Below, piece by piece: positions 14,410-53,074 of a DNA stretch of 64,000 bases. Origin of the DNA: Candidatus Gottesmanbacteria bacterium (lineage in GTDB: Bacteria; Patescibacteriota; Microgenomatia; UBA10105; UBA927); NCBI GenBank assembly GCA_023245335.1, contig JAHFKK010000001.1, positions 156,152 to 220,151 on the forward strand. Reading direction: 5' to 3'. The notes beneath the pieces were generated by a model. It was given only the letters and a program-made list of their open reading frames with translations. It made no database searches and was not told the DNA's origin. The position numbers and the translations under genes were made by a program. Positions within the stretch are counted from its first letter, which is position 1. Each line of letters opens with the position of its first letter.

Positions 14410-14411
14410 AT

Positions 14412-15158: not shown

Positions 15159-15170
15159 CACAGTACGGAT

Positions 15171-17026: not shown

Positions 17027-17121
17027 TTCGTTGCCTTTTTCGGATAGTTTTCGTAAAATGAAGCCTACAGCTAGCGTGCTTCCGCCAAACGTGGATCATC
17101 GTATGGCTGATAATGATCTTT

Positions 17122-17193: not shown

Positions 17194-17220
17194 ACATATG
17201 GCAATAGACGTGTGTCAGAT

Positions 17221-17684: not shown

Positions 17685-18545
17685 ATGGCACTGGAACTTA
17701 AACTCGCACACAAGCAATTTATCGAATACCTGGGTTCACGCAGGCGTGCTCGTGCTACCATCGTAGCATACAGTAAAGACATCGAGCAGCTTATCCAGTT
17801 TTTGGGAAACACAGGCAAAAAAGACATCACAACGATCTCCCGCGAGGAACTCGAGGCGTTCCTAAAGAAACTTGCCGCCGATAGCTATACCCCAAAATCC
17901 ATCTCCCGGAAAATTAACTCTATGAAGACCTTTTACCGATTCCTGAAGGCGTCGGGAGCTGTTCCTGTCGACCCAGCTTCGGATATTGAACACCCGAAAT
18001 ATGATGTGAAGCCGCCGCGCATCTTATCCAAACTCGAATACCGGGCTCTTCGGGACGCGTGTCGCGGAGACGTACGAACCTATGCAATTGTCGAACTCTT
18101 TTTACAGACGGGTCTCCGTATCGGAGAACTCGCCAACCTTTCCGTCGAGGACGTCCGGGAAGCAGAACTTCATATCGTCGCCGAGGAAGGTCATGAAGAG
18201 CGCATGGTACCCCTTAATCACGCCGCGAAGGAGGCGCTTGCGAGCTGGATGATAAATCGCGGCAACGGAACCAAGTCAAAAGCGCTATTTATAACCAAGA
18301 CGGGCCGCTCACTCCTTATCCGAAATATCCGAACCGCCATTGACCGGTACTTTAAAATCGCCGGCATTGAGGATGCCAAGGTAAATGATTTGCGCCATAC
18401 GTTTATCGCCCACCACCTCATGGCCGGCACTCCGATTACAACTATTAGTAAACTTGTCGGTCACAAACGGTTGTCCACCACGGAAAAATACCTTGAATTC
18501 ATCAAGGATAAACCGGCCGAACACGTAAAATTAGAGGAACTGTAA
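17685..18545 (+). CDS. Tyrosine recombinase XerC/XerD-like
   Basis: 286 aa with an N-terminal core-binding domain and a C-terminal catalytic region carrying R...HTFIAHH...GHKRL...Y. Confidence 0.8.
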   Translation: MALELKLAHKQFIEYLGSRRRARATIVAYSKDIEQLIQFLGNTGKKDITTISREELEAFLKKLAADSYTPKSISRKINSMKTFYRFLKASGAVPVDPASDIEHPKYDVKPPRILSKLEYRALRDACRGDVRTYAIVELFLQTGLRIGELANLSVEDVREAELHIVAEEGHEERMVPLNHAAKEALASWMINRGNGTKSKALFITKTGRSLLIRNIRTAIDRYFKIAGIEDAKVNDLRHTFIAHHLMAGTPITTISKLVGHKRLSTTEKYLEFIKDKPAEHVKLEEL

Positions 18546-36101: not shown

Positions 36102-36239
36102 TTATACCGTCAACCGTTTACGTCCGGTGGTTCGACGACGCTGCAAAACTAATCTGCCTTTCGCGGTTTTCATACGGGTACGAAACCCGTGAACGCGTTT
36201 GTGACGAAGCTTTTTTGGTTGATATGTTCGTTTGGGCAT
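36102..36239 (-). CDS. rpmH: 50S ribosomal protein L34
   Basis: Own translation of the minus strand: [45 protein letters not shown]. Not in the ORF track because it is under 60 aa; the track instead lists an out-of-frame 68-aa ORF here. Confidence 0.85.
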
Positions 36240-36263: not shown

Positions 36264-37676
36264 CTAGTTGGGTAAAGATGAAGATGAGACGGAGGAGGGG
36301 AGAGTGCCTATTTTCTTCACCCATTCCTTAAACTGATCACCGCGATCTGCGTAATCACGAAATGTGTTAAAACTGGCTGACGCAGGAGAGAGTAAGCATA
36401 TCTTCCCTCGGGGCGTATGTAGGTACGCCAATTTCACAGCATCTTCCATGGAAGATGCTGTGAATCTTTTTAAAATGTGGGCCTTTTGCGCGCGCTTCGT
36501 CACGACGCCAATTGACATCCAAATTTTTTCTCCGGTGTCGGGAAAAAGAATGAGCGTCGCCACAGGATGACTTCGCAAATATGCACCTAATTCAGCGTAG
36601 TCTATATGCCGATCAAGTCCGCCCACGAGAAGAGTCGCGACATCCGATCCCAATGCCTCGAGCGCATGGATGGTTGCCTGCGGAATTGTCGCAAGCGAAT
36701 CATTGTAAAATCGCACATTGTGGAACTCACCCACAAACTCCAACCGGTGCGGAAGGGGCTGAAATGGAGTTATTGCCCGAGCGATAGTGGGAATAGGAAT
36801 ATTCATAAGGCGGGAAACGGTTACCGCCGCCAATACATTTTCCTGATTCCCTAATAACGGCACATCCGACATCATGAGTACGGGGGCAACATCCGCGCCT
36901 GTTCTCACCGAAATCCATCCGTCCTTAAGGAATGTAGAAAGCGTGTCCGACGCTTCATCCCCATAGATAATTTTTTGCGCTCGTGTTGAAGAAATAAGTT
37001 CGCGCACGAACGTGTGTCTTGGGTTATACACGAGATAGTCACCACGCGCTTGATGCGACGTTATATTAACTTTTGCATTGGCGTAACTTGCAAGGTTTGG
37101 ATAATAATCTAGGTGTTCTGACACAATGCCAAGCATGACCGCAATATGAGGACCATAGCGACAGTCAAAAAGCTGGTGGCTCGAAAGTTCGAGAACAAAC
37201 ACCGTTTCCTCTGTCGCTAATTCAAGGCTATCAAGCATGGGAACTCCAATATTTCCCACCAACCGAACATCACGATACATCGCTGAGAGTATTTGTTTTA
37301 TGAGGCTGGAGGTCGTACTTTTTCCCTTTGTCCCGGTTATACCGATGGTGACACCCTTTACTCTCGAAAAAAATACGTTTGTGGCCGAGGTCATGTAGCC
37401 GCCATGTTGCAAAAATTTTTGTATTTCAGGGGTGTACGGAGAAATGCCCGGGCTTCGGATTATCGTATCGTATTCATCGAGATGAAAAAGGTATCCCTCT
37501 CCGTTATAGACGGTCGCACCTTTATATTTCTCGCCAGACACGAGCTCTGTCTCGACATTTCTATCTGCAATCCCAACCCTAAGCGCGGGGTAATATTTAG
37601 CAAGCCATGCGTGGACACTTCTGCCCTCTCTCCCGTAGCCGACAATGAGCACTGATTTTCCTCGTATTTCTTCCAT
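36264..37676 (-). CDS. murD: UDP-N-acetylmuramoyl-L-alanine--glutamate ligase MurD (possibly L-Glu-specific MurD2 type)
   Basis: Mur ligase domains with GITGTKGKSTT P-loop, DRNVE-like Rossmann N-terminus and a C-terminal domain. The start was trimmed to MEEIRGKSVLIVGYG. Confidence 0.8.
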   Translation of the reverse strand: MEEIRGKSVLIVGYGREGRSVHAWLAKYYPALRVGIADRNVETELVSGEKYKGATVYNGEGYLFHLDEYDTIIRSPGISPYTPEIQKFLQHGGYMTSATNVFFSRVKGVTIGITGTKGKSTTSSLIKQILSAMYRDVRLVGNIGVPMLDSLELATEETVFVLELSSHQLFDCRYGPHIAVMLGIVSEHLDYYPNLASYANAKVNITSHQARGDYLVYNPRHTFVRELISSTRAQKIIYGDEASDTLSTFLKDGWISVRTGADVAPVLMMSDVPLLGNQENVLAAVTVSRLMNIPIPTIARAITPFQPLPHRLEFVGEFHNVRFYNDSLATIPQATIHALEALGSDVATLLVGGLDRHIDYAELGAYLRSHPVATLILFPDTGEKIWMSIGVVTKRAQKAHILKRFTASSMEDAVKLAYLHTPRGKICLLSPASASFNTFRDYADRGDQFKEWVKKIGTLPSSVSSSSLPN

Positions 37677-37677
37677 A

Positions 37678-39090
37678 TCATTCTTGTTTCGACCAGGCGT
37701 TCCGGAGCGTGGTGACATATTCGGGCGTAAGGTTATACGTATCGCCCCACGCGTGAAGAACTTCTTCTTTCAACTGCGCCACTTCTTGATCTGTAGGGTT
37801 GAGGTCGCTTTTGATTTTAAGAAGCCCCTCCGGAATCTCTATGCCCTCTTGTGCGTATTTCTCTATACAGAGAACAACCGCGAGCTTGGACTCATCACGG
37901 GTGCCGACACATTCAAACGGCTTCACGGGGGTCAAACCGACTAATCCGCGGGTGTGCTTAATTATTTCCGGACTTTGTAAGTAATCCCGACCAAATATCT
38001 TGGTCGTTATGTCCTGATAGGAAATATACGGAAACAACGTGAGGTACGTGAAGGCGCACTTAGCGCATCTCCCGCACCACGCATTGGTCTTGCTTCCGAC
38101 ATTACAACTCCTGAATGTCGAAAAAAACTTCGGGTACCCGGCGAACGTCGCGCCGATCTGTATATCATTAAGAGGGCGAAGAAAGCTGAAATACAACGGC
38201 GAGTCATCAAAAAAATTCCGGCAATATTGTCGAAACGCCTGTTCAAATCGGAAACTCTTCGAGTACTGGTGATTTACTTCCATTCCGCGATACACAACGT
38301 TTCCTTCTTCGGCACTACGCTCATTTGACACAACAACATGATCGTTGCCATAAAGAAAAGCAACGGTAATACCGAGAAACGCAAGGTATGCGGAGAACGG
38401 GGTGTGGCCGTTGAGGTATCCGGCCCCGTTGAGCTTCAACAATTTTGGGTCTATCTCGCGCTCAATGATGGCTGGTTGAACAACCCCCGCCTCAAGAATG
38501 TTCGCAAGTGCTGCGTCTGTAGGATTAACAACCATCGTCTGAAATTTATTGCCGATTCCTTTAAGAATTCCGAGTGTCACCGCGGAATCTTTTCCACCTC
38601 CGACAAGAATCAAATCTCCCGGCGAATCTTGCAGGGAAAAGCGCCTTGGTTTGGTCGCGTCGCCCATCCTGGGACTTACCCTTATTCGGTTCCCAGGGCC
38701 TGACGCTGGACCATTTATGATCTGTAAAAAGTCCTGACGGGTAAAATCAATGTCGTTTCGGTAAAAAAATTCTCCCAGCCCATGGATAAATAGGTCATAC
38801 CAGAAACGAATTTGTTCTTGCGTCAATTGTCCCGCCTCCACCACAAACTCAGAAGGGCACGCCGCTTTCCAATAACTTATGGCCTCAATTAACCCGAGAT
38901 GAAACACGTACGGTACAAATGTGTCTGCCCGGATATCTCCAGCATAAGGAATCGTCACTTTGGGATGAAACACAATGTCCGGTTCGAGCACAAATTCGTA
39001 GGTAATGAGCACATCCGAACCATTATCAACTACATCATATGATTTATACACAAACCGTGGATGGTTTTCGCGGAGTTGGTGAAGCGTCAT
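37678..39090 (-). CDS. PP-loop ATP pyrophosphatase superfamily protein with C-terminal Cys cluster; candidate MurL-like epimerase (hypothesis)
   Basis: 470 aa with a PP-loop LVGGGKDS and a downstream CNVGSKTNAWCGRCAKC cysteine cluster. It is translationally coupled to murD, stop to start. Confidence 0.45.
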   Translation of the reverse strand: MTLHQLRENHPRFVYKSYDVVDNGSDVLITYEFVLEPDIVFHPKVTIPYAGDIRADTFVPYVFHLGLIEAISYWKAACPSEFVVEAGQLTQEQIRFWYDLFIHGLGEFFYRNDIDFTRQDFLQIINGPASGPGNRIRVSPRMGDATKPRRFSLQDSPGDLILVGGGKDSAVTLGILKGIGNKFQTMVVNPTDAALANILEAGVVQPAIIEREIDPKLLKLNGAGYLNGHTPFSAYLAFLGITVAFLYGNDHVVVSNERSAEEGNVVYRGMEVNHQYSKSFRFEQAFRQYCRNFFDDSPLYFSFLRPLNDIQIGATFAGYPKFFSTFRSCNVGSKTNAWCGRCAKCAFTYLTLFPYISYQDITTKIFGRDYLQSPEIIKHTRGLVGLTPVKPFECVGTRDESKLAVVLCIEKYAQEGIEIPEGLLKIKSDLNPTDQEVAQLKEEVLHAWGDTYNLTPEYVTTLRNAWSKQE

Positions 39091-39165
39091 GCCTCGTTAT
39101 TGTACCACCTCCGCCTGATTTCTCACATTTGTTTGAGAAGAAGGAGTGTAACAAAAGGGGCTCTT

Positions 39166-40740
39166 CTAGACTCCTGGGGTCTTTTCAAACACAACAACGT
39201 TTGTGGTTTTAGACAACGCGCGGACTTCCCGAATGACATAGTTTTTCCAGCGCAATTGATACGGACCCACACACTCAGAGAGGACCTTGGCTTCATCGAA
39301 CTTGTCGCAAACGAGATATACAAGTGGGTGATTTTCTCTTACACGACGATCCGGTTCGTTTCCGAGAAGCACGAATTTTACAGGATAATTTATTGACACA
39401 TGCAGTAAATAATACAGGGGTTCAGCAAAAAAATCGTACTGATCTTCCGGACGAAAAAGGTGCACGCCAATATCACGGGTTTGCGTTTTCCGGTAAACCA
39501 TGTCCTTTTGAATCGTCGACATAAGCACTTGGGCCGCCTCATACTCTCTCCTTGGGTGTGTGATGGTGGTCGTCCACCACGAGGCGGCGTTCCCAACGAC
39601 AAAAATAAAGAGGGCAAAAAAAATAATACCGCGGCGGGGGTTGTTGTGTTGTATGATCCACAGGTGAACCCACCGCGCGCATAGCACAAAAATAATTGGG
39701 TATAACGGAAGAAATCGATATGCCGGCATTTGCATACCAAACAATGCCGGGAGCACAAAGCCGAGAAACGCCCAGTGGTACCCAGAACGAAAAAACCCCT
39801 TAAACGATGACACGAATGTCTTTTGGCTGCCCATTATGCTTGTGACGACCACAATGGCCCCAATAAGCACCCTTAAGACTCTGCCCGCCTCTCCCCCCGG
39901 AGTGACCGTCCAAATTCTCACCACATCCTGTACAACGGTCGTCGCGAAAACAAAGGCAAGCGTCGTTGCCTGATACCACGTGGCGAGATGTGTGGCTTGT
40001 CGTATAATGCTCAACGTGTTGGTCTGTTGTAATGACACGCTCTGCATTACCCACGGGCCAAAAACAGCAGTAAACATTCCGCCGAGAAGGAGAAAGGACA
40101 AAAGGGCGCCGTAGCGTCTCGCCAGTCCACCAAATGAACGAAGGTGTGAGAAGGATCGCATTAACACAAACAACGCAAGGAGCGCGGGTGTAGGGTAAAA
40201 CGCTATTGCGAATACATAGAGCAGCACCCCGAAGCAATACACCCACAAATTCTTTTTCCGGAACGCAACCTCTGTCACCGCAAGATACGCACAGACAGCA
40301 ATCATTGTGGGAAATGGATTCCAAATCGACCTCCCATGCTCAATCATGGACGCAGACGTCATCACAAAAAATAGCGTCCAGATCCCTGTCCAGACGTCAA
40401 AACGCAGGAAGGCATAATAACCGACAAGTAGTCCGCTCAATACGCTCAAAATGATATATTCCGACGAAATTCCGCGGGGATCTGCGCTGACCACTTCAAG
40501 CGCGGCGACAAAATAATACAACAGCGGGTGAATGCTTCCCCCTTCAAACGTTATGATTGGCCCGGCGAGCGGGGTGTGATGGCTATAAATAATTTTGTGT
40601 GCGGTGAGAAGAAGGTCTCCCTGATCATCCATATAGTACATAGCCTGATCGCGGTTATAAAGGCGGAGGAATAACCCCACCAAAACCAACAAAACTCCAA
40701 TAACCAGGGGCATCGACAGTTTTGACCTCATCATCGTCAT
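39166..40740 (-). CDS. GT39/ArnT-like (PMT family) membrane glycosyltransferase
   Basis: Polytopic N-terminal region with a DD motif (YYMDDQGD) near the first loop and a C-terminal soluble domain. The start was trimmed to 40740 so that it does not overlap the dnaA promoter. Confidence 0.5.
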   Translation of the reverse strand: MTMMRSKLSMPLVIGVLLVLVGLFLRLYNRDQAMYYMDDQGDLLLTAHKIIYSHHTPLAGPIITFEGGSIHPLLYYFVAALEVVSADPRGISSEYIILSVLSGLLVGYYAFLRFDVWTGIWTLFFVMTSASMIEHGRSIWNPFPTMIAVCAYLAVTEVAFRKKNLWVYCFGVLLYVFAIAFYPTPALLALFVLMRSFSHLRSFGGLARRYGALLSFLLLGGMFTAVFGPWVMQSVSLQQTNTLSIIRQATHLATWYQATTLAFVFATTVVQDVVRIWTVTPGGEAGRVLRVLIGAIVVVTSIMGSQKTFVSSFKGFFRSGYHWAFLGFVLPALFGMQMPAYRFLPLYPIIFVLCARWVHLWIIQHNNPRRGIIFFALFIFVVGNAASWWTTTITHPRREYEAAQVLMSTIQKDMVYRKTQTRDIGVHLFRPEDQYDFFAEPLYYLLHVSINYPVKFVLLGNEPDRRVRENHPLVYLVCDKFDEAKVLSECVGPYQLRWKNYVIREVRALSKTTNVVVFEKTPGV

Positions 40741-40804
40741 ACGGATATAGTAGGACACATCGGGCCTTTTTGCACCCGCCTTCTCCCAACGCGGTTGATG
40801 TCCT

Positions 40805-40850
40805 TGACAAAGAGTGGATTGTTGTCTAGTATGTGGAAAAGTTTTCCACA
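40805..40850 (+). promoter_or_regulatory. dnaA promoter (TTGACA-N17-TAGTAT) with palindromic pair of DnaA boxes
   Basis: TTGACA at 40805-40810 and TAGTAT at 40828-40833. TGTGGAAAA/TTTTCCACA inverted DnaA boxes at 40833-40850, just upstream of the dnaA start at 40870. Confidence 0.5.
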
Positions 40851-40869
40851 TTCTGCTCCGGGTCTTCAT

Positions 40870-42237
40870 ATGGATCTAACACGACTTTGGAAATCGGTGC
40901 TGTCGGAAATTGAATTATCGGTTTCAAAGGCCACGTATCAAACGCACTTTGCGCATTCCCTTTTGTTGTCCCTGGATGAGGGTGTCGCGTCAATTGCGTT
41001 TCCAAGCCCCCTCATGCGAACACTTGCTGAAACCCGCTACTACAGTCTTATTAAAAATATTCTTGACCACAAAACCGACGCCAATACAAGCCTTGTTTTT
41101 TCTGTATTACCAAGAAAAGAGCCGTCGGAAAAAGACGCGGGGCCGCTTTTCTCTCAAACCATGGACCCGACCCCCAACACAAACGTGCTCGCAAAAAAAC
41201 TTCACATAAACGCGGAATTGCGATTTGACAACTTTGCGGTCTCGACGACAAATCAACTCGCGTACGCCGCAACCACCGCGGTCGCCAAAAATCCCGGGTC
41301 GGCGTATAACCCCTTGTTCCTCTATGGGGGGGTGGGGGTGGGGAAAACGCACCTTATGTACGCAATAGCAAACGCGCTTCTCGCCAAAAAGCCCTCCGCG
41401 CGCGTTGTCTACTGCATGGGAGAGGAGTTTTTGAACGAAATTATTGAGTCGATTCAAATGCGTTCAACCCGACAGTTCAAACAAAAATATAGGGGGGCGG
41501 AACTTCTAATGGTTGATGACGTACAATTTATCGCCGGCAAACAAACCGCGCAGGAAGAGTTTTTTCATACGTTTAATGCCGTGCTTCGCGAGGGGGGGCA
41601 GATCCTTCTCACCTCAGATCGTCCGCCGCATGAAATTTCCCGGCTTGAAGACCGGCTGAGAAGCCGGTTTGAGGGCGGCCTTATTGTTGATATTTCCCCT
41701 CCGGACTTCGAGCTTCGGGCTGCCATCGTCAACATCAAATCCAAGGCTTTGGGCGTTACGGTTCCTTCTGATTGCGCACAGCTTGTCGCCGCAAACGTCG
41801 TCGACGCGAGAGCTATTGAGGGTTTTTTGCGGCGCCTGACGACAGAGCTTGCCACAAAGCCACAACCCATAACCCCAGAGCTCATATCGGGTCTTCTCAA
41901 CGCAAAGTCCGTATTTACCAATCACGCCCAAACCCCAAGGCGGGTATCCCCACAAGAACTTATGGATGCGGTTTCTCTTTATTTCAACATTAAGCCCACA
42001 CAATTAAAGGGCCCGAAGCGCGACCGACCCATCGCCAGGCCCAGACAGGTATTTATGTATCTTGCCAAAACCGAACTTGGGATTACGTACGAAGACATTG
42101 GTGGGTCCCTGGGGGGGCGGGACCATACGACCATTATGCACGGGGTAAACACAATTACCCAGGAGTTGTCCACAAACGAGGCTCTCCGGCAGGCGGTGGC
42201 GGGGATAAAACTCAAATTATGGACTCCCTCAATATGA
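40870..42237 (+). CDS. dnaA: Chromosomal replication initiator DnaA
   Basis: AAA+ region GGVGVGKTHL, LLMVDDVQF, sensor motifs and a C-terminal DNA-binding domain (GGRDHTTIMHG). The start was trimmed to MDLTRLWKSVL. Confidence 0.9.
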   Translation: MDLTRLWKSVLSEIELSVSKATYQTHFAHSLLLSLDEGVASIAFPSPLMRTLAETRYYSLIKNILDHKTDANTSLVFSVLPRKEPSEKDAGPLFSQTMDPTPNTNVLAKKLHINAELRFDNFAVSTTNQLAYAATTAVAKNPGSAYNPLFLYGGVGVGKTHLMYAIANALLAKKPSARVVYCMGEEFLNEIIESIQMRSTRQFKQKYRGAELLMVDDVQFIAGKQTAQEEFFHTFNAVLREGGQILLTSDRPPHEISRLEDRLRSRFEGGLIVDISPPDFELRAAIVNIKSKALGVTVPSDCAQLVAANVVDARAIEGFLRRLTTELATKPQPITPELISGLLNAKSVFTNHAQTPRRVSPQELMDAVSLYFNIKPTQLKGPKRDRPIARPRQVFMYLAKTELGITYEDIGGSLGGRDHTTIMHGVNTITQELSTNEALRQAVAGIKLKLWTPSI

Positions 42238-42415: not shown

Positions 42416-43525
42416 ATGAATATAAAATTATTACAAGAAAATTTCTTGAAAGCGCTCACGAGAGCGTTACGGGTTGTTCCCTCCCGCCCACAGCTTCCAA
42501 TACTACAAAACATAAGGCTCGTTGCGAAAAAAGACGGATTGGAAATTACCGCGACAAACATGGAAACGACGGAAACCGTGTGGTTGGGTGGGAAGGTGGA
42601 AAGAGAGGGGGAAGCCTGTGTCTCCGCACGAACCCTGTTTGAACTAGTCGCCTCATTCCCCGCAGAGACAACCCATGTGGTAGTCAAAGAAGAAACTCTT
42701 TACGTTTCCTGCGGCGGATTTCAGGCAACGCTTCCCATCGTGAACTCGTCAGAGTTTCCGCCAACGCCAGCTCTAGAAGAGAAGGCGGCGGGAGTGATGG
42801 ACAAAGAAACGCTCGACAAAGCGCTTGCAAGCGTGCTTTTCGCTGCGGCGACAGACGAAGGGCGTCCCCTTTTGACCGGGGTAAAAATACTTGCGGAGGG
42901 CGACGAGGTCAGGCTGGTTGCGACAGACGGATACCGGCTTTCTGTGAAAAGGGTGACGCTCGCGGCCCAGAAGCTAACAGGGGCGGTCATCCCCGCGCGC
43001 GCGCTTTCTGAGGTGGTCAAGCTTGGTCAGGAAGAAAAGGAAGAAAAAGAGGTTCGCGTCGGGCTCGCAGGAGAAAAACAGGCAGGGTTTATTATTGGTG
43101 AGACGGCGCTTCTTACCCGGCTTCTTGACGGGGAGTATCCGAATTTTGAACGAATCATCCCAAAGACGTTCACGACACGAGCACTTATAGAAAAAGAGCC
43201 GTTTTTGCGCGCCGTCCGTTCAGCCGCGATATTTGCACGGGATAACGCAAACATTGTGCGCTTAAGTCTAGATAAACAAAAGATTATCGTTTCAGCAAAC
43301 GCCCCCCAGGTTGGAGAAAACAAGATTGAACTGGAAGCAAAAATTGACGGTGAGGGCGGGGAAATAGCGTTTAATAGCAGGTTCTTGGTTGACTTCCTTA
43401 CGAATTTTCCCGACGAAGAGTTTCTGTTTGAAATGACCGGGGCGCTTAACGCCGGTGCATTCAAGCCAGTCAAAGACGATTCATACCTTCACATCATTAT
43501 GCCCGTCCGGGTGACTTCAAATTAG
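42416..43525 (+). CDS. dnaN: DNA polymerase III beta sliding clamp
   Basis: 369 aa with a three-domain clamp pattern; the N-terminus MNIKLLQENFLKAL is typical of DnaN. Confidence 0.85.
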   Translation: MNIKLLQENFLKALTRALRVVPSRPQLPILQNIRLVAKKDGLEITATNMETTETVWLGGKVEREGEACVSARTLFELVASFPAETTHVVVKEETLYVSCGGFQATLPIVNSSEFPPTPALEEKAAGVMDKETLDKALASVLFAAATDEGRPLLTGVKILAEGDEVRLVATDGYRLSVKRVTLAAQKLTGAVIPARALSEVVKLGQEEKEEKEVRVGLAGEKQAGFIIGETALLTRLLDGEYPNFERIIPKTFTTRALIEKEPFLRAVRSAAIFARDNANIVRLSLDKQKIIVSANAPQVGENKIELEAKIDGEGGEIAFNSRFLVDFLTNFPDEEFLFEMTGALNAGAFKPVKDDSYLHIIMPVRVTSN

Positions 43526-44519: not shown

Positions 44520-46769
44520 TTATTGTGCGCTTACCGACCCCTGCGGGCAACCTTTTCCAACCAAGAAACAACGCAGGTCGTTGCTCACGCAGCCCAAAAT
44601 TTCGTTTTTGCTCAGTGGTGTATCAGGAAGAAGGTCTAATACGTTCCCGCCAGATAATACCCCAAAATGCAGATGTTGTCCCGAAGAATTTCCCGTTTGG
44701 TCCATCCAACCGATTTGTACGTGTGCGGGCACCGTAGCACCCTTGGTTATGGCGGGATTGATAGCCTTTTTGAGATGCCCGTAAATAATTGTATACCCGT
44801 CGTCTGTGCGCATCGTAACGTAATTTCCGTATCCCTGTCCGCACCCATTACCCAACTCCCCGGAATTGTCGTTGCAGTTGTCATTTACATATAAAATAGT
44901 GCCGGAGCGAATAGTATAAACCGCAACGTTTCCGTCGGCATAGATGTCAACCCCGTTTTTGTCCGACCCGCTCGCGTGCGACGCTTTTGGGTCACAGGTG
45001 ACGTTCGGCCCCTGAGAGATTTTGCCGCTTGTGGGCCAGCGACAGTCGCCGACACACGCTTTAAACGTACACAAGGGGTCGGTGGGATTTTTACTGCAAT
45101 CAACCGCCCCTCCCCCAGGCGGCCCCTGGTCGCCCTCTTGTTGGTAGAGCGAATCAATTACAGCCGCTGACCGAGAGCTGTTTGCGATCATGGGAAGGTT
45201 AAACGGAGAGGGGAATATAAACAGAAGGATAACCACCCCCACGGCAATGAGCCCGACGAGGAGGGGCAAATCTTCCATTATAGGCGTAGGTAATCCTGCG
45301 GCACGCCGAGACGCAGACATCTGCTGGGGTAGAAATGGACCGTAAAAAATAAACGACGTTGTTTTGTCGATTGCGGAAGAAAACAAATTTCCAAGTTGTT
45401 CTCCAAGTATGCCCAATGAGAGAAACGGAAACCAAATGGACCATTGATTTTTAGATGTTCGACCCCCCACCCCCGAACCTGACCTCGCGGCGAAGGCTTC
45501 CCATGGGGACATGCCGTTTGGTAAAAAATTGTGCCCCCTCGGCGCGTTGGCGTTTGCGCGGGCAAGCTCCATATAATCAAAGAGCCGTTCCTTGGTGGCT
45601 TGGGTAATTGCGGGATCCAGCGGCCCGCGGAAGACCGTAGAAAAAACGTCTCCGAACACCGACCCCGCCTGGGCGGTCGACGGTTTTTCGCTCAAGGATT
45701 TGGTAAGGTCCTGGGTAATATGCGTAAACACCGCCGAGTGGACAAACGTTTCTCCCAAACGATCCGTAAGCTGTTGTGTGCTTGAAAGAAGCGAACGCAG
45801 GGTTCCGTTTACTTTTTCCTTATATATAATTTCCCGGACCGGTTCTCCCACGATTGACAATAGGCCCTCTGCGGCTTGTTGTAGGCCCTTCGTCACACCC
45901 ACACCCTTGCCGTGAGTAAAAAATCCGCGTGATGACGCCGGGTGTGCCGTGTCCTGGCGCTCGATTGCTTGTGCCACCTGCGCTAACTTGATGCCCCTTA
46001 CGAGCGCAGCATCTTTTTGTCCTTCTGCGGCGTTTATCACAACGTCGGCAAGGACGTCCGGCCGCTTAAGGTCTAAGTTTTCGTAGACTGCCGCAACGAG
46101 CTCCCGTTCGGATTTGTGTGCGGCAACCGCGGTCGTGAAGTATTCCTCGTGATTGGCGAGAGCCTCTTCAATCGTGGTTTTTAAACGCGCGCGCTGATCC
46201 GGAGAGATGTCGGAGCCCGCGTAAACCTCGCTTGAAGCAGTAAGCATTTCAGCAAATCGGTCTTTGGTTTGCAGTGTCGTTGCTTCTCCCGCGGCCGCAA
46301 CCAACGACTGGTCAACGATTGAGCCAAGTTGTTTATCGGTGAGCGACGGCATCGTGGAGCTGTATTTAGATACCAACTCATGAATAAACGCCCGTCGTCG
46401 TTCTTTGTATGGTTCGAGTTTGGCGGTTGTATGTTCCCGGGCGCGCGTAACCGCCACCCGTCGAAGAGTCGCGACACTGTGTATCTCGTTTTCGTTAAGG
46501 GGAGCGTCCGGTTCAGCCCCCTGAAAACTGGGGAGTTCGCGTAATTTGTCGCTCGTGTCCGTGAATACGGTCTTGAGAAGCGCGAGTACCGCCTCGTCGT
46601 TCTGGAGAGCCGCCTCAGCAAGCTGGCCGCTTTTGGCCGTCAGCGACTCCCGTAAAAATCCATATTGCTGACAAGCGGAGAGGGCCCCCTCTGCCGTAAT
46701 GGTGCCGTTATTCAGATCGGATAATAGATTATTGGAAAATTCCAATAATGTCTGATGCGCTTCTGCCAT
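44520..46769 (-). CDS. Bitopic protein: large cytoplasmic helical domain - TM - extracytoplasmic M23 (LytM) metallopeptidase domain
   Basis: C-terminal YTIIYGHL...GNSSGQHLHFGV is the M23 HxxxD/HxH family signature. The TM is LPLLVGLIAVGVVILLFIF at ~aa 500. Positioned directly downstream of virB4. Confidence 0.7.
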   Translation of the reverse strand: MAEAHQTLLEFSNNLLSDLNNGTITAEGALSACQQYGFLRESLTAKSGQLAEAALQNDEAVLALLKTVFTDTSDKLRELPSFQGAEPDAPLNENEIHSVATLRRVAVTRAREHTTAKLEPYKERRRAFIHELVSKYSSTMPSLTDKQLGSIVDQSLVAAAGEATTLQTKDRFAEMLTASSEVYAGSDISPDQRARLKTTIEEALANHEEYFTTAVAAHKSERELVAAVYENLDLKRPDVLADVVINAAEGQKDAALVRGIKLAQVAQAIERQDTAHPASSRGFFTHGKGVGVTKGLQQAAEGLLSIVGEPVREIIYKEKVNGTLRSLLSSTQQLTDRLGETFVHSAVFTHITQDLTKSLSEKPSTAQAGSVFGDVFSTVFRGPLDPAITQATKERLFDYMELARANANAPRGHNFLPNGMSPWEAFAARSGSGVGGRTSKNQWSIWFPFLSLGILGEQLGNLFSSAIDKTTSFIFYGPFLPQQMSASRRAAGLPTPIMEDLPLLVGLIAVGVVILLFIFPSPFNLPMIANSSRSAAVIDSLYQQEGDQGPPGGGAVDCSKNPTDPLCTFKACVGDCRWPTSGKISQGPNVTCDPKASHASGSDKNGVDIYADGNVAVYTIRSGTILYVNDNCNDNSGELGNGCGQGYGNYVTMRTDDGYTIIYGHLKKAINPAITKGATVPAHVQIGWMDQTGNSSGQHLHFGVLSGGNVLDLLPDTPLSKNEILGCVSNDLRCFLVGKGCPQGSVSAQ

Positions 46770-46774
46770 GGTGG

Positions 46775-48754
46775 TTATGAATTATTTTTTGTATTGTCAA
46801 CCGTTTCTACGGTAAACATAGGACGATTTGACCTGGGCAGTTCGTGAGGACTCGGTAATTCCGGTTGAATGGCCGACTTTTGTAAATTATTGAGCTGCGT
46901 CTGTTCGACTTGTGTTCTTGGCGCCTCTTTTTGCGCTGTCGCGCCCTCTTTCATGGTTTCCTGCGGTCGGGTGGTCGCAAGGGCGTGTTCTTCGGGGCTT
47001 GAGACGACGCGCATGGCCGCATGTGCCGGACCGGCAAAGAATAGCCCTTGGCCGACGTCAGCCGCAAGCAATAAGTGCTGTTCTCCTTCCGACAGGTAAA
47101 ACACTTCGGCGATTTTGTTGATGGCGGCGGAGGACTGCTTTAGAAGTATCTGCATGCTGCTGTTTTGGATGATCGCCTTGCCCATTTCCGTTGCCAAAAA
47201 ATCCTCGACGTCTTGGGTGATTGTCGTTAGTCCTAAATAGTATTTACGCGCCCTTTTGGCTATGCCATAGAGAAATTGTGCCGAATCGGGGTACTTCATG
47301 AGATACCACGCCTCATCAACAACGAGAATGCGCCGTTTCATGTCATGCCGGATTTTATTCCAGATAAAATCAAGAATAAGGTACATGGCCGTTGGTCGAA
47401 GTTCGTCCTCAAGATCCCGGATAGAAAAAACCGTGAGTTGGTTTCGTATGGCGATATTGGTTTGTTGGTCAAATATACCCACCAAACTTCCCCGAACAAA
47501 TTTTTCTATGCGGTCGGCGAGCCCCTTTGCAAGGAGCTCCTCCATGCCGACGAGCGTTTTATAGAGATCTTCCATAAGCGGCGGTTCTTTTTCGTGGGTG
47601 GACGGGTCGGGGGTTATGCCCTTTTGTTTGTAGGTGAGAATAAGTGCCCGATCGAGGAGCGCATCCTCAGTGGGAGTCAGTTTGCCCATGACCACCCTGA
47701 AAAATCCGTGTAGCGACAATATTTTTTGACTCAACTGGCTTTCCTCCCCGCTGGTGTTTCCCAAGAGCGCCAAGTCAAACGGATTTATTTTGGTGACGGA
47801 GCCGAAGCGGAACCGGATATATTCACCGCCCAGCGCGTGCGTCACAGACTCATATTCGTTTTCCGGATCGATAATAATAACTTCGGTGTCAAACATGAGA
47901 GAACGCATAACTTCAAGCTTGACCATGTAACTTTTCCCCCCTCCTGATTTGCCGAAGACGACGGAGTTGGCGTTTTCCAAAGTAAATCGGTCAAAGATTA
48001 TCAAGCTATCATTGTGTTCGTTGAGTCCGTAGAGTATGCCCTCGTTTGCGGTGAGCTCGCTTGTAGTGAAAGGAAAGGTTGTGGCAAGGGACGTTGTGTC
48101 CATGTTTCTTGTCACCATCAGCCGGTCCTGACCCATAGGGAGTGTTGTTTTTAGACCCTCTTCCATCTGGAGCGTTGCTGTTTTGGTGACAATAAGAAGG
48201 GATCCGAGGGTTGCCTCGACTTGTGTCGTTGCTTTATCAAGATCTTCTTTGGTTTTGGCAGGAAGCGTGACATAGAGCGCGAATTGGAAGAAGCGTTCTG
48301 ACCCCTTGGCAAGCTCTTGTTGGAGCGCAAGGGCGTCTTCCAGGGCGACCTGAACAGATGGTTCGATGACGCGGCCGCGCTTGAGGTCGGACTGGATGGT
48401 TGCCTCCATTTCCCCCACTTTTCGTTTCAGATTTTCCAAAATTTCCTCCGACCGGGTCGGATAGACGTACATCGAAATATCAAGCGTGTGGTTAAAAGAA
48501 ATAAGCGGCTCCAGCCAATTGGCGGATACAAACCTCGGATACCCTGCGACGAAGAGCGTGCGGTAATACCAGTCACCAACCTTTAAGAAATCAAAGTCCA
48601 CTTCTATGGCGGGAGGAGCAATGACATCTGTGATGACGAGCGGTCCTTCTGTTGGCTTCGTCCGCGGGGGGCCCTCCGGCATCGGATTTACGAATTTTTT
48701 AACGAGGGTGGATAGATCGGGTACGTTAGCCATTGCTCTCCTTTCCGACGTCAA
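46775..48754 (-). CDS. virB4: Type IV secretion ATPase VirB4/TrbE/CagE family
   Basis: Walker A VFGKSGGGKSYM, Walker B ILVVDEAWYLM, with the length and block order of VirB4. Confidence 0.8.
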   Translation of the reverse strand: MTSERRAMANVPDLSTLVKKFVNPMPEGPPRTKPTEGPLVITDVIAPPAIEVDFDFLKVGDWYYRTLFVAGYPRFVSANWLEPLISFNHTLDISMYVYPTRSEEILENLKRKVGEMEATIQSDLKRGRVIEPSVQVALEDALALQQELAKGSERFFQFALYVTLPAKTKEDLDKATTQVEATLGSLLIVTKTATLQMEEGLKTTLPMGQDRLMVTRNMDTTSLATTFPFTTSELTANEGILYGLNEHNDSLIIFDRFTLENANSVVFGKSGGGKSYMVKLEVMRSLMFDTEVIIIDPENEYESVTHALGGEYIRFRFGSVTKINPFDLALLGNTSGEESQLSQKILSLHGFFRVVMGKLTPTEDALLDRALILTYKQKGITPDPSTHEKEPPLMEDLYKTLVGMEELLAKGLADRIEKFVRGSLVGIFDQQTNIAIRNQLTVFSIRDLEDELRPTAMYLILDFIWNKIRHDMKRRILVVDEAWYLMKYPDSAQFLYGIAKRARKYYLGLTTITQDVEDFLATEMGKAIIQNSSMQILLKQSSAAINKIAEVFYLSEGEQHLLLAADVGQGLFFAGPAHAAMRVVSSPEEHALATTRPQETMKEGATAQKEAPRTQVEQTQLNNLQKSAIQPELPSPHELPRSNRPMFTVETVDNTKNNS

Positions 48755-49388
48755 TCGTGCTCATGTCGGGAGGGGTGGTCCCCGGATTGTACATGCTAAA
48801 AAACAACTTCATTAATTGTTCTGAGGTGAGCTGTGTCGCATGAAGCCCAACGCGTGCGAGCAGGCGTACGATGTGGTCGCGCTTAGGAAGGAGTACCGTC
48901 TGCGCGCGTTCATAGATATACGATTTGTTATACGGCAGGCCGGAGCTCTTTGTTCCGAAGAGGACCGACGGGGACGAACCAAGCTCTAGGTGAGAAAAAG
49001 GAATCACGATATAGAATTTTTTGTCGAGTACGTCCTTTTCTTTAACCATCGAAGCCACGAAGAGCCGATACCCGTGGATGCTTTTCACGAGCTTCGGGTT
49101 TTTCTCCCGCTTTTCCTGATCCTCAAGGAGCTTAAGATACGCAGAAATATCTTTATGTTTTGTCTGAATAATGATCTGGATAGGGAACGAAAGTGAATTG
49201 AGAAGGCCGGCATACGCATAAATAATCGCATCCTGTTCCTTTTCTGAGAGCAGTCCGAAGTTGACGGCTGTAGTTGCGACAACCAACGCCACCGACCCGT
49301 CGGCAAAAAGCACCAGGTCACCCTGTACGTCAATAATCTCGGTGAATGATTGTGTTGATGCGCGAATTGGTACGATCGGTTGTGCCAT
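48726..49388 (-). CDS. Hypothetical T4SS-associated protein (upstream of virB4)
   Basis: 220 aa soluble protein. Its stop overlaps the virB4 start. Conserved position only. Confidence 0.35.
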   Translation of the reverse strand: MAQPIVPIRASTQSFTEIIDVQGDLVLFADGSVALVVATTAVNFGLLSEKEQDAIIYAYAGLLNSLSFPIQIIIQTKHKDISAYLKLLEDQEKREKNPKLVKSIHGYRLFVASMVKEKDVLDKKFYIVIPFSHLELGSSPSVLFGTKSSGLPYNKSYIYERAQTVLLPKRDHIVRLLARVGLHATQLTSEQLMKLFFSMYNPGTTPPDMSTIDVGKESNG

Positions 49389-49399
49389 AAAGATATGTG

Positions 49400-50725
49400 T
49401 TACATGTTTTGTCCGCCGAATATTTCCTGAGCGAGTTTTTCCCGTGTCCGCTGTTTTTCACTTTTTGCAACGATTCCAAGCGCGGGAACAACAGTGCCAT
49501 TCAGGGTAATTTGTACGCGTGAGAAAGAGAATCGGGCCCTGGGATCTTCTACCTCTACAAAATATACTCCCGACCCTAAAGGCGTTGAGGCGGCAAACTG
49601 ACCGAGCTTGTTTGTTTTAAGGGCCCGCACCGGTATTCCCTCTTTATTGGTAACGGTGACGAGTATGCCCGGCAGCATGTTTCCCTCATCGTCTTGTACC
49701 AGTCCGGTAATGACGTTTGCGACCGTGGTGAGCCGAGGGAGACCAACTTTCACGGCGTCGTCCTGGGTGTTAATGACGGTAACGGTTGATCTTGTTGTGG
49801 TTTTCGGCGTCTCGTGTGTGGCTGATTGCGGTTGAGTGTCTGGTTCCGCGGCTACGGACGGCCCTCGCGAAGTCAACTGACGTTTGAGGGAAACCAATTC
49901 ATCTTCCATGGTTGACCTTTGTTTGAGTACGTCGGTAAGTTGTGATTGTAATTCAAGTACGCGATCCGATGCCATATTTTTGGTGGCAAGTTGTGATTGT
50001 AATTCCTTGAGCGACGCCTCAAGTTCCCTCATTTTTTGTTGCACAGCGACGCTTTCTGTTTGGGTCTTCGGTGTTGTGTTTACGGATTGAGGGGTCACCT
50101 GTGGTTTGTGACCGGTCACTGGCCGCGGGACAAATTGCAGCGGAGAGACAGGCGCGTTTGGCGCTTCATGGTTGGACGGATGTTGTTTTGGGGTCCATAG
50201 GTCAGAGAGCCATGAAAACATGGAGGGAGCTGGATGAGTTGTCACAACGGTAGTCGCGTGTTCGTTGGATTTGAGGTTAGAACCAGGACCCATGGCTGAA
50301 GGAGACGATTGAAATAAGCTCGAAAGCATCGATTTTGACTTCTGCGTTTGTGGGGGCGAGGCGGGGGTGACGGACGCAGCGGCTTCGTGCGCCGGCACAA
50401 CCCTTTTGGCCGCTTGAGCTGTTGGTTCGGGTTTTGGAGCCTCTTTAATCCAAACATACTGTGTGGGATTATAAATGCTTTTGAAAAACGAAAACACCCA
50501 AACATCCATGGGTCGTTCTTCGACTGGGATAAACGCAAACCCGACGCCCAGGAACGCGAAGGCGAATGTTAACGGCCACGTGATAATAAACGGGAGTGGT
50601 AATTTATAGGCCACAAACGCCAGTATCGCACCGGCGCAGAGATACCCGAATTGCTTGAGGGTCATGTCGCCAATAAGGCGGAATTGGAATGTGGTTACGT
50701 TTTGTGGAACCGGATGTTGTTCCAT
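49400..50725 (-). CDS. PrgI/VirB3-like N-terminal domain fused to coiled-coil and C-terminal beta (CarboxypepD_reg-like) domain
   Basis: The N-terminus FQFRLIGDMTLKQFGYLCAGAILAFVAY followed by two TM matches the PrgI-family pattern. It is followed by a Pro/Thr-rich linker, a coiled coil (LEASLKELQSQL) and a C-terminal beta domain. Confidence 0.5.
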   Translation of the reverse strand: MEQHPVPQNVTTFQFRLIGDMTLKQFGYLCAGAILAFVAYKLPLPFIITWPLTFAFAFLGVGFAFIPVEERPMDVWVFSFFKSIYNPTQYVWIKEAPKPEPTAQAAKRVVPAHEAAASVTPASPPQTQKSKSMLSSLFQSSPSAMGPGSNLKSNEHATTVVTTHPAPSMFSWLSDLWTPKQHPSNHEAPNAPVSPLQFVPRPVTGHKPQVTPQSVNTTPKTQTESVAVQQKMRELEASLKELQSQLATKNMASDRVLELQSQLTDVLKQRSTMEDELVSLKRQLTSRGPSVAAEPDTQPQSATHETPKTTTRSTVTVINTQDDAVKVGLPRLTTVANVITGLVQDDEGNMLPGILVTVTNKEGIPVRALKTNKLGQFAASTPLGSGVYFVEVEDPRARFSFSRVQITLNGTVVPALGIVAKSEKQRTREKLAQEIFGGQNM

Positions 50726-50899
50726 ATCTTACTTCATTGTAGAGGGAAAAAAATTAGGGTTCAATAGCACAAAGCGCATCAGGACCGTGAAAACTCCATT
50801 TTTTAGTTTTCACGAAATTATGAGTAAGAATATGTCCAAGTCGTTTGCGGGTAGGGGCGAGCGCATCTTCTCCCACAAATGATGTGCTAGAATGAAGCT

Positions 50900-53074
50900 A
50901 TGCAACTCCCTCTTGAGGTGCTTGAAATTATCGGTAATCGATTAAGCGAGGAAACGCCGCTTGCGATGGAACAGGTGTTCGCCGCATTTGCTAACGTCCG
51001 CAGGGAGGCGTTATGGCGGCGTTATTTTTGGCCCGGAAGAGCGCAGTTTGCGAGTTTTGAAATTGTTTCTATCAATAGTCAGGTTCATTTCTACATTGTC
51101 ACCCCGAAACATCTTCGGAGTTTTATAGAAGGACAGTTGACTGCGCAATACCCGCGCGTGGTGATTACCCCGACCACAGATTATCTGCCGCAATTTTTCA
51201 CACAGCCGCATGCCGTTGCCCGGCTTCGGATGTGGAGCAGTTTCTATTACCCCCTAAAAACGCATGAGGATGTCAAAGACGTCGATTTGTTGTCCGCAGT
51301 TCTGGGACAGCTCGGTAAACTGTCTGCGAGTCAGGCTGTGGCTATTCAGTTCCGCGTCACCCCCGCGGGTCGCGGGTGGCAGGCAAACGCCGCGAGCGTA
51401 ATTGCGCGTGGTGTGCAGGATCCCAGCTCGCCGACCGGCAGGACCAGGACACATCCTGACAGCCGGATTATAGAAACTAAACTAAGCGCAAGCGGGTTGC
51501 GAACGGGAATTCGGATCGTCGCCTCAGCGCCGAGTGAATCCGAGGCGTTTGATTTGGTGACGAGGGTTGCAGGATCGTTTGGTGTCTATACATTGGGAGA
51601 AGGCAACAGTCTGTTTCAACCCCGGACATTTTTTTGGCAGCGTGAGCGGCTGGCGCGATCCATGATCGCGCGGGGCATATATTTGACACCACGGAACCAC
51701 GTGTTGAACACGCGCGAGCTTGCTTCGTTATGGCATCCGCCCGGGCTTTCTTTGGCGTCGATCAAAAATATTCAATGGGGGAGGGGGTTATTGGGAGAAC
51801 CGCCGCAAAATTTGCCAGTTGCTACAGATGACGAATCCCAAAGGAAAGAGATCAACTTTTTTGGTAAATGTGAATGGCGCAATCAGCAGGTGACGTTTGG
51901 CATCAAAGAGGCGGACCGGAGAAAACATCTCTACATCATCGGAAAAACAGGAACCGGTAAGTCTACAACCATCGCGAATATGGCAATAAATGACATGAAA
52001 AACGGGGCGGGGGTGGCCGTCATTGACCCGCACGGAGACTTATCTGAAATTCTCCTGAACTATATCCCATCAAACAGAATAAACGACGTCGCATATTTGG
52101 ATCCTTCAGATAGCGAACACCCGTTTCACATAAATCCTTTAGAAGTGAAAAATCCGACATACCGTGAACTGGTCGCAAGTGGTATCGTGTCGATATTTTA
52201 CAAGCTGTATCACATGAGTTGGGGTCCGAGGCTCGAATATATCCTCAGAAACACCATCCTGACGCTCACACTGGTCCCCAATTCCACGTTTTTGGATATA
52301 CCGGAGCTTCTGACAAACGAACTATACAGACAAAAGGTGGTAGAACGCCTCGATGACCGGGTGCTCAAGAATTTTTGGGTAAACGAGTTCAATAAATTTA
52401 CACCCCGTTTGCATAGCGAGTCCACGTCTCCAATCCTCAACAAGGTCGGACAATTTTTGTCCTCCCAGACGATTCGGAATATCGTGGGGCATCCGACGTC
52501 AACGATTGATTTGGAAACAATGATGAACGAGGGGAAGATCGTGATCATGAACCTGTCTCAGGGAAAGCTCGGAGAAGACAGTAGCGCGCTCCTGGGGGCC
52601 ATGATGATAACGAAGATGCAACTTGCCGCGATGAATCGTGTGTATCTTCCCGAGGAAGAACGGCGGGATTTTTATCTCTACGTCGACGAGTTTCAAAATT
52701 TCGCGACGCAGTCATTTATAAAAATTCTTTCCGAAGCGCGGAAATATCGGCTCAATTTGACTCTCGCAAACCAGTATATCGGGCAGATTGATGAGGAGGT
52801 GCAAAAGGCAATCTTTGGTAACGCGGGCTCTCTGGTTTCTTTTGGAGTCGGTGCCGCAGATGCAAGGCTCCTCATGCATGAATTTGGAAGCAAATATCAG
52901 GAACAGGAGTTGGTGGGGTTGGGGAACTACCAGATTATTCTGAAGCTGTCCATCGACAATCAGACGTCTCTGCCGTTTTCGGCGATGACGCTTCCCTTGC
53001 CCAAATCGAAAAACGAACATCGGGAAACGGTCGTGCGGGTGAGTCGCGAACGCTACACAAAAAAGGTACAATAA
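50900..53074 (+). CDS. VirD4/TraG-like (FtsK-HerA superfamily, AAA_10-type) ATPase without TM segments
   Basis: Walker A IIGKTGTGKST followed by DPHGD, and Walker B FYLYVDEFQNF. A ~330-aa N-terminal domain of unknown function. No hydrophobic anchor. Confidence 0.55.
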   Translation: MQLPLEVLEIIGNRLSEETPLAMEQVFAAFANVRREALWRRYFWPGRAQFASFEIVSINSQVHFYIVTPKHLRSFIEGQLTAQYPRVVITPTTDYLPQFFTQPHAVARLRMWSSFYYPLKTHEDVKDVDLLSAVLGQLGKLSASQAVAIQFRVTPAGRGWQANAASVIARGVQDPSSPTGRTRTHPDSRIIETKLSASGLRTGIRIVASAPSESEAFDLVTRVAGSFGVYTLGEGNSLFQPRTFFWQRERLARSMIARGIYLTPRNHVLNTRELASLWHPPGLSLASIKNIQWGRGLLGEPPQNLPVATDDESQRKEINFFGKCEWRNQQVTFGIKEADRRKHLYIIGKTGTGKSTTIANMAINDMKNGAGVAVIDPHGDLSEILLNYIPSNRINDVAYLDPSDSEHPFHINPLEVKNPTYRELVASGIVSIFYKLYHMSWGPRLEYILRNTILTLTLVPNSTFLDIPELLTNELYRQKVVERLDDRVLKNFWVNEFNKFTPRLHSESTSPILNKVGQFLSSQTIRNIVGHPTSTIDLETMMNEGKIVIMNLSQGKLGEDSSALLGAMMITKMQLAAMNRVYLPEEERRDFYLYVDEFQNFATQSFIKILSEARKYRLNLTLANQYIGQIDEEVQKAIFGNAGSLVSFGVGAADARLLMHEFGSKYQEQELVGLGNYQIILKLSIDNQTSLPFSAMTLPLPKSKNEHRETVVRVSRERYTKKVQ

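Follow-up and report, generated by a model that had tools for sequence, protein, structure and literature searches.

The stretch of Candidatus Gottesmanbacteria DNA analysed here (64,000 nucleotides, nt; the window) carries on its minus strand two adjoining open reading frames (ORFs), the downstream one encoding a MurD-type Mur ligase and the upstream one a protein of 470 amino acids (aa) with a PP-loop motif. An earlier note on this DNA had proposed the pair as a candidate for the MurD2/MurL branch of peptidoglycan synthesis, in which L-glutamate (L-Glu) is ligated and then epimerized to D-glutamate (D-Glu). We have found both ORFs where the earlier note had placed them, and the 470-aa ORF does contain LVGGGKDS (within L160-I-L-V-G-G-G-K-D-S169). 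The locus comprises the following elements:

37678..39090, minus: murL, the 470-aa ORF (ORF list; match to the NCBIfam MurL model; Pfam MurL domains on the identical database protein P0001)
36264..37676, minus: Mur ligase of predicted MurD2 type, 470 aa from the ATG at 37676 (TIGR01087, 326 bits; 29% identity to Escherichia coli MurD)
37674..37680, minus: junction of the murL stop and the murD2 start, TGAtATG (sequence reading)
39099..39126, minus: candidate promoter-like site, GTGAGA-16-TACAAT, in which TG precedes the -10 hexamer; it ends 9 nt upstream of the murL ATG

The longest form of the murD ORF (36264..37718, minus) encodes 484 aa from an alternative ATG at 37718 and overlaps murL by 41 nt. 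Since the alignment to the murD model TIGR01087 begins at residue 23 of this 484-aa form, and since the internal Met at 37676 is the alignment partner of E. coli MurD Met1, the ATG at 37676 is the likelier start. The likelier junction is therefore formed by the murL TGA (37680-37678), a one-base spacer and the ATG at 37676. With either start there is no intergenic space between the two genes. The tight packing described in the earlier note thus stood, whereas the overlap of the upstream gene with the murD start holds for the ATG at 37718 and not for the likelier one. The two genes are probably co-translated.

Regarding the start of murL, the public copy of the protein (P0001, 457 aa) begins at a GTG corresponding to Val14. 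However, L6, R7 and H10 are invariant and P11 is nearly so among 42 homologues, which argues that the ATG at 39090 is the better start; the database MurL start is probably 13 codons too short (window 39049-39090, minus). The promoter-like site before murL is to be taken as a candidate only, because the promoter and terminator scan yielded a number of sites in the region that was not above the shuffled expectation.

Identity and genomic linkage of the 470-aa protein

The 470-aa protein matched NF041275, the NCBIfam model for MurL of Xanthomonadales, with an E-value of 3e-70 and a score of 237 bits, the alignment running from residues 11 to 407 of the protein and from positions 10 to 392 of the 447 in the model. 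The precomputed Pfam records of the identical P0001 and of all 120 best homologues contain PF26299 (MurL_N) and PF26298 (MurL_epimerase_C). Our own Pfam scan of the 470-aa protein, run with a version lacking these two models, returned only DUF6395 (E 0.014), the two MurL domains being known from the precomputed records. The near full-length model match and the Pfam domains upheld the identification of the protein as a MurL-type epimerase. Database searches retrieved at least 7989 homologues, with a best non-self match of 696 bits. Given these homologues and a ligase scoring above the TIGR01087 cut-off, sequence comparison indicates that both ORFs are real genes and not chance ORFs.

When 81 MurL sequences from many phyla were compared, the window protein retained all 63 columns that are conserved at 95% or more. 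Nearly all named homologues carry the source label "hypothetical protein," and one homologue, 49% identical, is already entered as the epimerase in a JGI record. Our search of the literature found no paper describing MurL in bacteria of the Candidate Phyla Radiation (CPR) or the MurL fold; its coverage of subscription journals was poor, making this weak evidence of absence.

We have scanned one genome per species with MurL, which gave at least 599 matching stretches and at least 590 confirmed relatives, and have compared the best 80 loci. The position of murD in these was as follows:

murD directly 3' of murL on the same strand: 64 of 80 loci
murD in the same ORF as MurL (fusion): 3 of 80 loci
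murD on the same strand, 0.5-3.4 kb downstream of murL: 7 of 80 loci
no MurD in the stretch examined: 6 of 80 loci, two of them close to a contig end

The stop codon of murL and the predicted start of murD overlap in 43 of 61 adjacent pairs, with ATGA being the commonest form and the one found in the three closest relatives. A spacer of ~210 nt separates murL and murD in one locus (L021, ~7335-7545) and holds a tRNA-gene-like candidate stretch (GGGGTGTAGTTTAATGG...TTCGAATCC). The three fused loci are L016 (5827-8487), L035 (5947-8268) and L071 (5914-8700). An exhaustive search of 1.84 billion cluster representatives returned 1,142 MurL clusters (50% identity) at E <= 1e-30, and 27 of the 150 best cluster representatives proved to be single-chain fusions, with MurL preceding MurD in 26 and following it in one (P0138); P0127, P0139 and P0150 (922 aa) are also among the fused ones. 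The conserved adjacency, the stop-start overlap and the repeated fusion are, taken together, strong evidence that both proteins act on one pathway step.

According to the record titles, the best 80 loci come from many CPR lineages, Acidobacteria, Rokubacteria, Methylomirabilia, Binatia, Bdellovibrionota, a cyanobacterium, Bacteroidales and Clostridia. The titles were chosen by the submitters and may in part be mistaken; "uncultured Enterobacteriaceae" and "Pseudomonadales" on co-assembly bins, for example, may be unreliable, and we have not relied on single labels. The nearest relatives bear the labels Patescibacteria, Gottesmanbacteria, Curtissbacteria and Microgenomates. P0001 itself lies on a 1,218,111-bp contig and on a 242-kb ENA metagenome contig.

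Predicted PP-loop fold and cysteine motif of MurL

A search of solved structures by sequence gave only noise for the 470-aa protein, indicating that no MurL structure has been deposited. Hence, we have relied on an AlphaFold model computed with 42 homologues, which had a predicted local distance difference test score (pLDDT) of 92 and a predicted template modelling score (pTM) of 0.91. The model consists of four parts, namely an N-terminal domain (residues 1-130, pLDDT 89-98), a low-confidence linker (131-158; pLDDT 55-67 over residues 131-160), an alpha/beta core and a helical C-terminal region. The corresponding coordinates, with domain borders taken from the model, are:

38701..39090, minus: N-terminal domain of MurL (~residues 1-130), followed by the low-confidence linker (131-158)
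38020..38616, minus: QueC-like PP-loop ATP-pyrophosphatase core (~residues 159-357)
38584..38604, minus: PP-loop motif V163-G-G-G-K-D-S169, between strand 159-162 and helix 167-179
38056..38106, minus: four-Cys motif C329-x9-C339-x2-C342-x2-C345, likely a QueC-type zinc site (Cys conservation and hhalign; metal binding presumed)

The GGGKDS stretch (residues 160-171 read LILVGGGKDSAV) falls between the first strand and the first helix of the core, as in the Rossmann-like core of the PP-loop superfamily. The consensus of the family reads (G/S)GGKDS, the canonical SGGKDS being found in 13 of the 81 sequences; at position 164, 64 sequences have G and 13 have S, and the residues that follow are kept in 80 (G165), 81 (G166), 77 (K167), 81 (D168) and 76 (S169). 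The only meaningful match of the MurL family profile among solved structures was to the PP-loop of TtuA (VSGGKDSAVT, E 0.008). Foldseek placed the model close to QatC (E 2e-5) and QueC (E 5e-4), these and Cap9 being the best structural neighbours, followed by tRNA thiolases; NAD synthetase and asparagine-synthetase-like enzymes were found as well.

The Cys cluster to which the earlier note had drawn attention consists of Cys329, Cys339, Cys342 and Cys345, plus Cys394, with all codon positions verified. The first four are kept in 81 of 81 sequences. In hhalign, the MurL segment SCNVGSKTNAWCGRCAKCAF aligned with TCYNGFKG-DGCGHCAACNL of E. coli QueC, whose C-x8-C-x2-C-x2-C motif binds zinc; by analogy, the MurL motif may do the same. 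The Cys motif was the only part that aligned, with a probability of 4.7%. The relationship to QueC is thus not established by sequence alone, and it is the predicted structure that establishes it. Further invariant residues (H229, H274, K278, E257, E283, R211, D214, R305, C78 and C394) are candidate acid/base or substrate-binding groups, judging from their conservation.

The resemblance to QueC (e.g., Bacillus subtilis 3bl5) comprises the (S/G)GGxDS loop, the C-x8/9-C-x2-C-x2-C motif and a first step of carboxylate adenylation, which is established for QueC and proposed for MurL (PMC8788868). Unlike QueC, MurL has in the model an additional N-terminal domain of ~130 aa and a helical C-terminal region of ~110 aa, the QueC-like part being confined to roughly residues 159-357, and the protein is, as had been noted earlier, unlike the common PP-loop enzymes in size. 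The two would also differ in substrate, that of MurL being a UDP-muramyl dipeptide, and in outcome, which would be stereoinversion and hydrolysis instead of amide or nitrile formation.

These neighbours, together with the QueC-like CxxCxxC motif, could point to a QueC-like protein active in nucleoside or tRNA modification, or in an anti-phage system (QatC or Cap9 type), that came to lie beside murD by chance. Nevertheless, Pfam gave no match to QueC or any other tRNA-modification family, and no QueC profile was matched in Pfam or NCBIfam at E <= 1. The resemblance to QueC and TtuA is at the level of the fold (13-14% identity, 13% for QueC), and sequence identity with QueC and Cap9 amounts to just 13-20% and is confined to the core. 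Moreover, adjacency to murD is kept in 74 of the 80 loci and fusion is frequent, which a chance placement cannot explain. We have rejected the defence-system reading, as PADLOC models gave no match to the 470-aa protein; the partner genes of QatABCD or of the type IV cyclic-oligonucleotide-based anti-phage signalling system (CBASS), to which QatC and Cap9 belong, are not present around murL, where linkage and fusion to a Mur ligase are seen instead. We therefore consider the QueC-like alternative extremely improbable and retain the assignment to MurL.

According to two published reviews, MurL "lacks known conserved domains" (PMC5808125, PMC8788868). The predicted QueC-like fold adds to this account and fits the consumption of one ATP with release of AMP described there.

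Stereospecificity residues of the MurD and the source of D-glutamate

The MurD encoded downstream of murL scored 326 bits with TIGR01087, for a cut-off of 212, and contains the Pfam domains MurD-like_N, Mur_ligase_M and Mur_ligase_C. Its similarity to E. coli MurD (29% identity) extends over the full length, and the catalytic residues equivalent to E. coli K115, N138, H183, K198, T321 and S415 are retained.

The residues that discriminate between the two glutamate enantiomers have been studied in Xanthomonas oryzae MurD2, where E197, R358, P433 and F435 correspond to D182, K348, A414 and L416 of E. coli MurD (PMC8788868). The E197D/R358K double mutant of the X. oryzae enzyme switched completely from L-Glu to D-Glu, L-Glu specificity survived the exchanges P433A and F435L, and E. 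coli MurD carrying K319T gained acceptance of L-Glu (PMC8788868). We have compared these positions in the window MurD with those of five solved D-Glu ligases (E. coli, Thermotoga and chains 3lk7, streptococcal, 7sir and 8dp2); those with coordinates were located by alignments and codon position:

37116..37118, minus: Glu187 (= E. coli MurD Asp182, X. oryzae MurD2 Glu197); solved D-Glu ligases have D in four and T in 3lk7
36693..36695, minus: Leu328 (= E. coli MurD Lys319); solved D-Glu ligases have K in all five
36609..36611, minus: Arg356 (= E. coli MurD Lys348, X. oryzae MurD2 Arg358); solved D-Glu ligases have K in four and R in 3lk7
E. coli Ala414 position: Ala434 in the window MurD; solved D-Glu ligases have A in all five
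E. coli Leu416 position: Phe436 in the window MurD; solved D-Glu ligases have L, F or W, with F in Thermotoga

The signature at E. coli positions 182/319/348 is D/K/K in E. coli, Thermotoga, 7sir and 8dp2, and T/K/R in 3lk7. With Glu187 and Arg356 at the two switching positions and Leu328 at that of K319, the window MurD appears, from its residues, to be in the L-Glu state at all three experimentally supported positions. This bore out the earlier suggestion of a MurD2-type ligase; by these residues the enzyme is not of the D-Glu type, which would have spoken against it. The positions of A414 and L416 do not discriminate, since P433A and F435L keep L-Glu specificity and the D-Glu ligase of Thermotoga has Phe.

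The same signature was found in the MurDs linked to other MurL proteins. In 72 such MurDs, picked by their similarity to the MurL of the window, Glu occupies the D182 position in 68, Leu or Ile the K319 position in 70 and Arg the K348 position in 71. The MurD halves of the MurL-MurD fusions gave equivalent results (E in 23, L/I in 24 and R in 24 of 25). The loss of the K319 lysine, apparently a near-universal mark of MurL-linked MurDs, may be worth attention. Exceptions to the signature were observed in L043, L068 and L035, which retain Asp at the E. coli 182 position. In L059 (7316-8680), the MurD adjoining MurL has D/A/K instead of E/L/R at positions 182/319/348.

We have then looked for other sources of D-Glu. 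No match with E. coli MurI was found in the window by tblastn or phmmer (best E 0.4), and neither a racemase nor a class-IV aminotransferase domain turned up in Pfam scans, which took in 42 of the 54 ORFs of at least 150 aa listed for the window, a set including all the non-nested ones. The search for murI or a D-amino-acid aminotransferase covered the 64-kb window of a genome of ~1.2 Mb. A working glutamate racemase is reportedly present in at least one CPR bacterium, going by the title of Penalver et al. 2024 (reference 104 of PMC11974145), so that the absence of murI cannot be assumed from taxonomy.

These two points leave room for an ordinary D-Glu MurD fed by MurI or a D-amino-acid aminotransferase encoded elsewhere, with the PP-loop protein altering the stem peptide, for instance by adenylating the alpha-carboxylate of Glu and then amidating it to iso-glutamine, much as enzymes of the NadE, QueC or asparagine-synthetase type treat their own substrates. 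Such a reading would be in line with the score passing the cut-off of TIGR01087, a model named for the D-glutamate ligase, and with the many amidotransferases among the PP-loop relatives (NAD synthetase, asparagine-synthetase-like enzymes, QueC). However, TIGR01087 presumably predates the recognition of MurD2 and does not separate the two types, and all three stereospecificity positions are in the L-Glu state, unlike in the five solved D-Glu ligases. As for amidation, the protein is homologous over its whole length to an enzyme whose epimerase activity has been demonstrated in two phyla (PMC8788868), and a glutaminase partner gene is not found beside murL. Overall, we regard this alternative as unlikely and favor an L-Glu-adding MurD2 paired with MurL.

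Proposed pathway, genomic surroundings and wider distribution

Based on the above, we assign the gene pair to the MurD2/MurL branch of peptidoglycan precursor synthesis with a probability of about 0.88. This is very probably the known route described in 2017 and not a new one, and current Pfam already recognizes the MurL protein. The closest system is that of X. oryzae, formed by MurL (XOO_1319) and MurD2 (XOO_1320), orthologues of which have been assayed from Micromonospora and Salinispora (Feng et al. 2017, as reported in PMC8788868 and PMC5808125). The enzymes from these three sources ligate L-Glu and carry out a one-way, ATP-to-AMP epimerization from L to D (PMC8788868, PMC5808125).

Our comparison with XOO_1319 and XOO_1320 was made through the NCBIfam model and the residue numbers in PMC8788868. 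Like that system, the window has two adjacent genes, with a protein homologous to the MurL model over its full length and carrying the Pfam MurL domains, and a ligase with Glu and Arg at the two switching positions and Phe at that of F435. Unlike it, the pair occurs in a Patescibacteria/CPR host, a group that is not listed in the published distribution, scores only 237 bits with the Xanthomonadales model, has Ala at the P433 position and has an activity that is predicted. With the canonical MurI and MurD route, the ligase shares the Mur-ligase fold and catalytic residues; the window locus differs from it in the E, L and R at the D182, K319 and K348 positions and in having no murI within the 64 kb, and free D-Glu would never be needed.

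In the pathway as we envisage it, MurD2 (36264-37676) would ligate L-Glu, and not D-Glu, onto UDP-N-acetylmuramoyl-L-alanine. The PP-loop domain of MurL would subsequently adenylate the alpha-carboxylate of the terminal L-Glu, converting ATP to an acyl-adenylate and pyrophosphate, the acidified C-alpha proton of the activated Glu would be exchanged with inversion, and hydrolysis would free AMP and the D-Glu product. The same scheme of adenylation, inversion and hydrolysis has been put forward for MurL of X. oryzae (PMC8788868). We infer its placement at the QueC-like PP-loop site, where the model would locate the adenylation, as well as the nature of the proton-exchange step, and by analogy L-Glu ligation and L-to-D epimerization would also apply in this organism. 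In general, enzymes of the PP-loop superfamily form acyl- or enol-adenylates and release pyrophosphate, and the predicted fold is compatible with ATP-to-AMP epimerization chemistry. Given the end-to-end packing and the probable co-translation of the two genes, the intermediate would be made and consumed in step.

Besides the coverage of the murI search and the racemase reported from the CPR, several points weigh against this assignment. The score of the 470-aa protein with NF041275 (237 bits) lies far below the equivalog cut-off of 700 bits. Such a score is expected since the model is clade-specific, covering Xanthomonadales only; as a sequence criterion it shows that the protein is not a Xanthomonadales-type orthologue, which is no proof of its lying outside the wider MurL family. 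At the position of X. oryzae MurD2 Pro433 the window ligase has Ala434, a change that was without effect on specificity in the X. oryzae enzyme (PMC8788868). The solved D-Glu ligases serving as controls were only five, the 72 MurL-linked MurDs are not phylogenetically independent, and the fold assignment of MurL comes from a predicted and not a solved structure. Finally, the MurL and MurD2 enzymes with assayed activity all come from lineages other than this one, with which the comparison is by analogy.

The murL-murD2 pair is located at the replication origin of a small (~1.2-Mb) genome. On the plus strand and divergent from it lie dnaA (40795-42237) and dnaN (42416-43525), and the cumulative GC skew reaches its minimum near 40-42 kb. 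On the minus strand, murD is followed 3' by rpmH (36102-36239), rnpA, yidD, yidC and a KH/R3H protein of the Jag type, and then by a Wzy-like protein and a flippase. The rpmH gene is a 45-aa ORF resembling ribosomal protein L34, which begins 24 nt past the murD stop and just before rnpA, with a promoter-like site (36276-36248) just upstream. The pair is thus placed directly between dnaA and the rpmH-rnpA-yidD-yidC-jag block. No division and cell wall (dcw) cluster was found around it within the 64-kb window.

As the window is the only part of the genome in view, murL and murD2 might be a redundant or decaying copy in a cell that relies on MurI and a second, canonical MurD encoded elsewhere. 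Yet both ORFs are intact and of full length, every family-invariant residue is kept, and the locus stands within a core housekeeping stretch that extends from dnaA to rpmH-rnpA-yidC; in addition, small CPR genomes rarely keep redundant pathways. A redundant copy is hence a very unlikely account of the locus, and we continue to view the pair as a probably working MurD2/MurL branch.

Other genes of the window were recorded in passing. Directly upstream of murL, a 567-aa ORF (39166-40869, minus) has the look of a multi-pass membrane protein and gave neither a Pfam nor a PADLOC match. A type IV secretion-like gene set (44520-53074) includes an M23 peptidase (44520-46769), a P-loop ATPase of the VirB4/TraG type (46775-48754), a PrgI-like protein (49400-50725) and a VirD4-type coupling protein (50900-53074). 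Two large ORFs had no Pfam match (53708-57337, plus, 1209 aa; 57372-58991, minus, 539 aa). An ATP-dependent DNA ligase with DNA_ligase_A N, M and C domains (323-2056, minus) and an HMG-CoA reductase (62695-63858, plus; 400 bits) were unexpected for a typical bacterial genome. At 10586-12526 (minus) lies the gene for a Trp/Tyr-type class I aminoacyl-tRNA synthetase with a YbaK-type editing domain (tRNA_edit) at its N-terminus and a tRNA_bind domain at its C-terminus, a combination that looked unusual. A tyrosine recombinase of the XerC/D or phage-integrase type (17685-18545, plus), adjoined by two tRNA-Met genes and a tRNA-Trp gene (14336-17195), could be Xer or mark the edge of an integrated element.

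Reviews describe the MurD2/MurL pathway as confined to a few genera and have proposed it as a target for narrow-spectrum antibiotics (PMC5808125, PMC8788868). Our data suggest that the distribution of the MurL family and the frequency of its fusion to MurD are far wider than these reviews state. With relatives in at least 590 species-level genomes, 1,142 clusters and many phyla, an inhibitor would probably hit far more than Xanthomonas and Stenotrophomonas. It is even conceivable, although we hold this tentatively and with less than even confidence, that MurD2/MurL is a major and possibly ancient D-Glu route across Patescibacteria and other phyla, including anaerobes labelled Bacteroidales and Clostridia, and that MurL is a zinc-bearing PP-loop enzyme derived from QueC.

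The basic picture of the pathway, known since 2017, is unchanged by this locus. What it adds concerns first the annotation of such genes: the standard murD model would call the ligase a D-glutamate type although its residues indicate L-glutamate, and the neighbour labelled "hypothetical protein" would be the epimerase that makes the D-centre. The predicted QueC-like PP-loop core and the four invariant Cys would in turn give the ATP-to-AMP requirement reported for MurL a concrete structural footing. If MurL is indeed a zinc-bearing PP-loop enzyme derived from QueC, the adenylation-driven stereoinversion of a peptide would join the reactions of the PP-loop superfamily.

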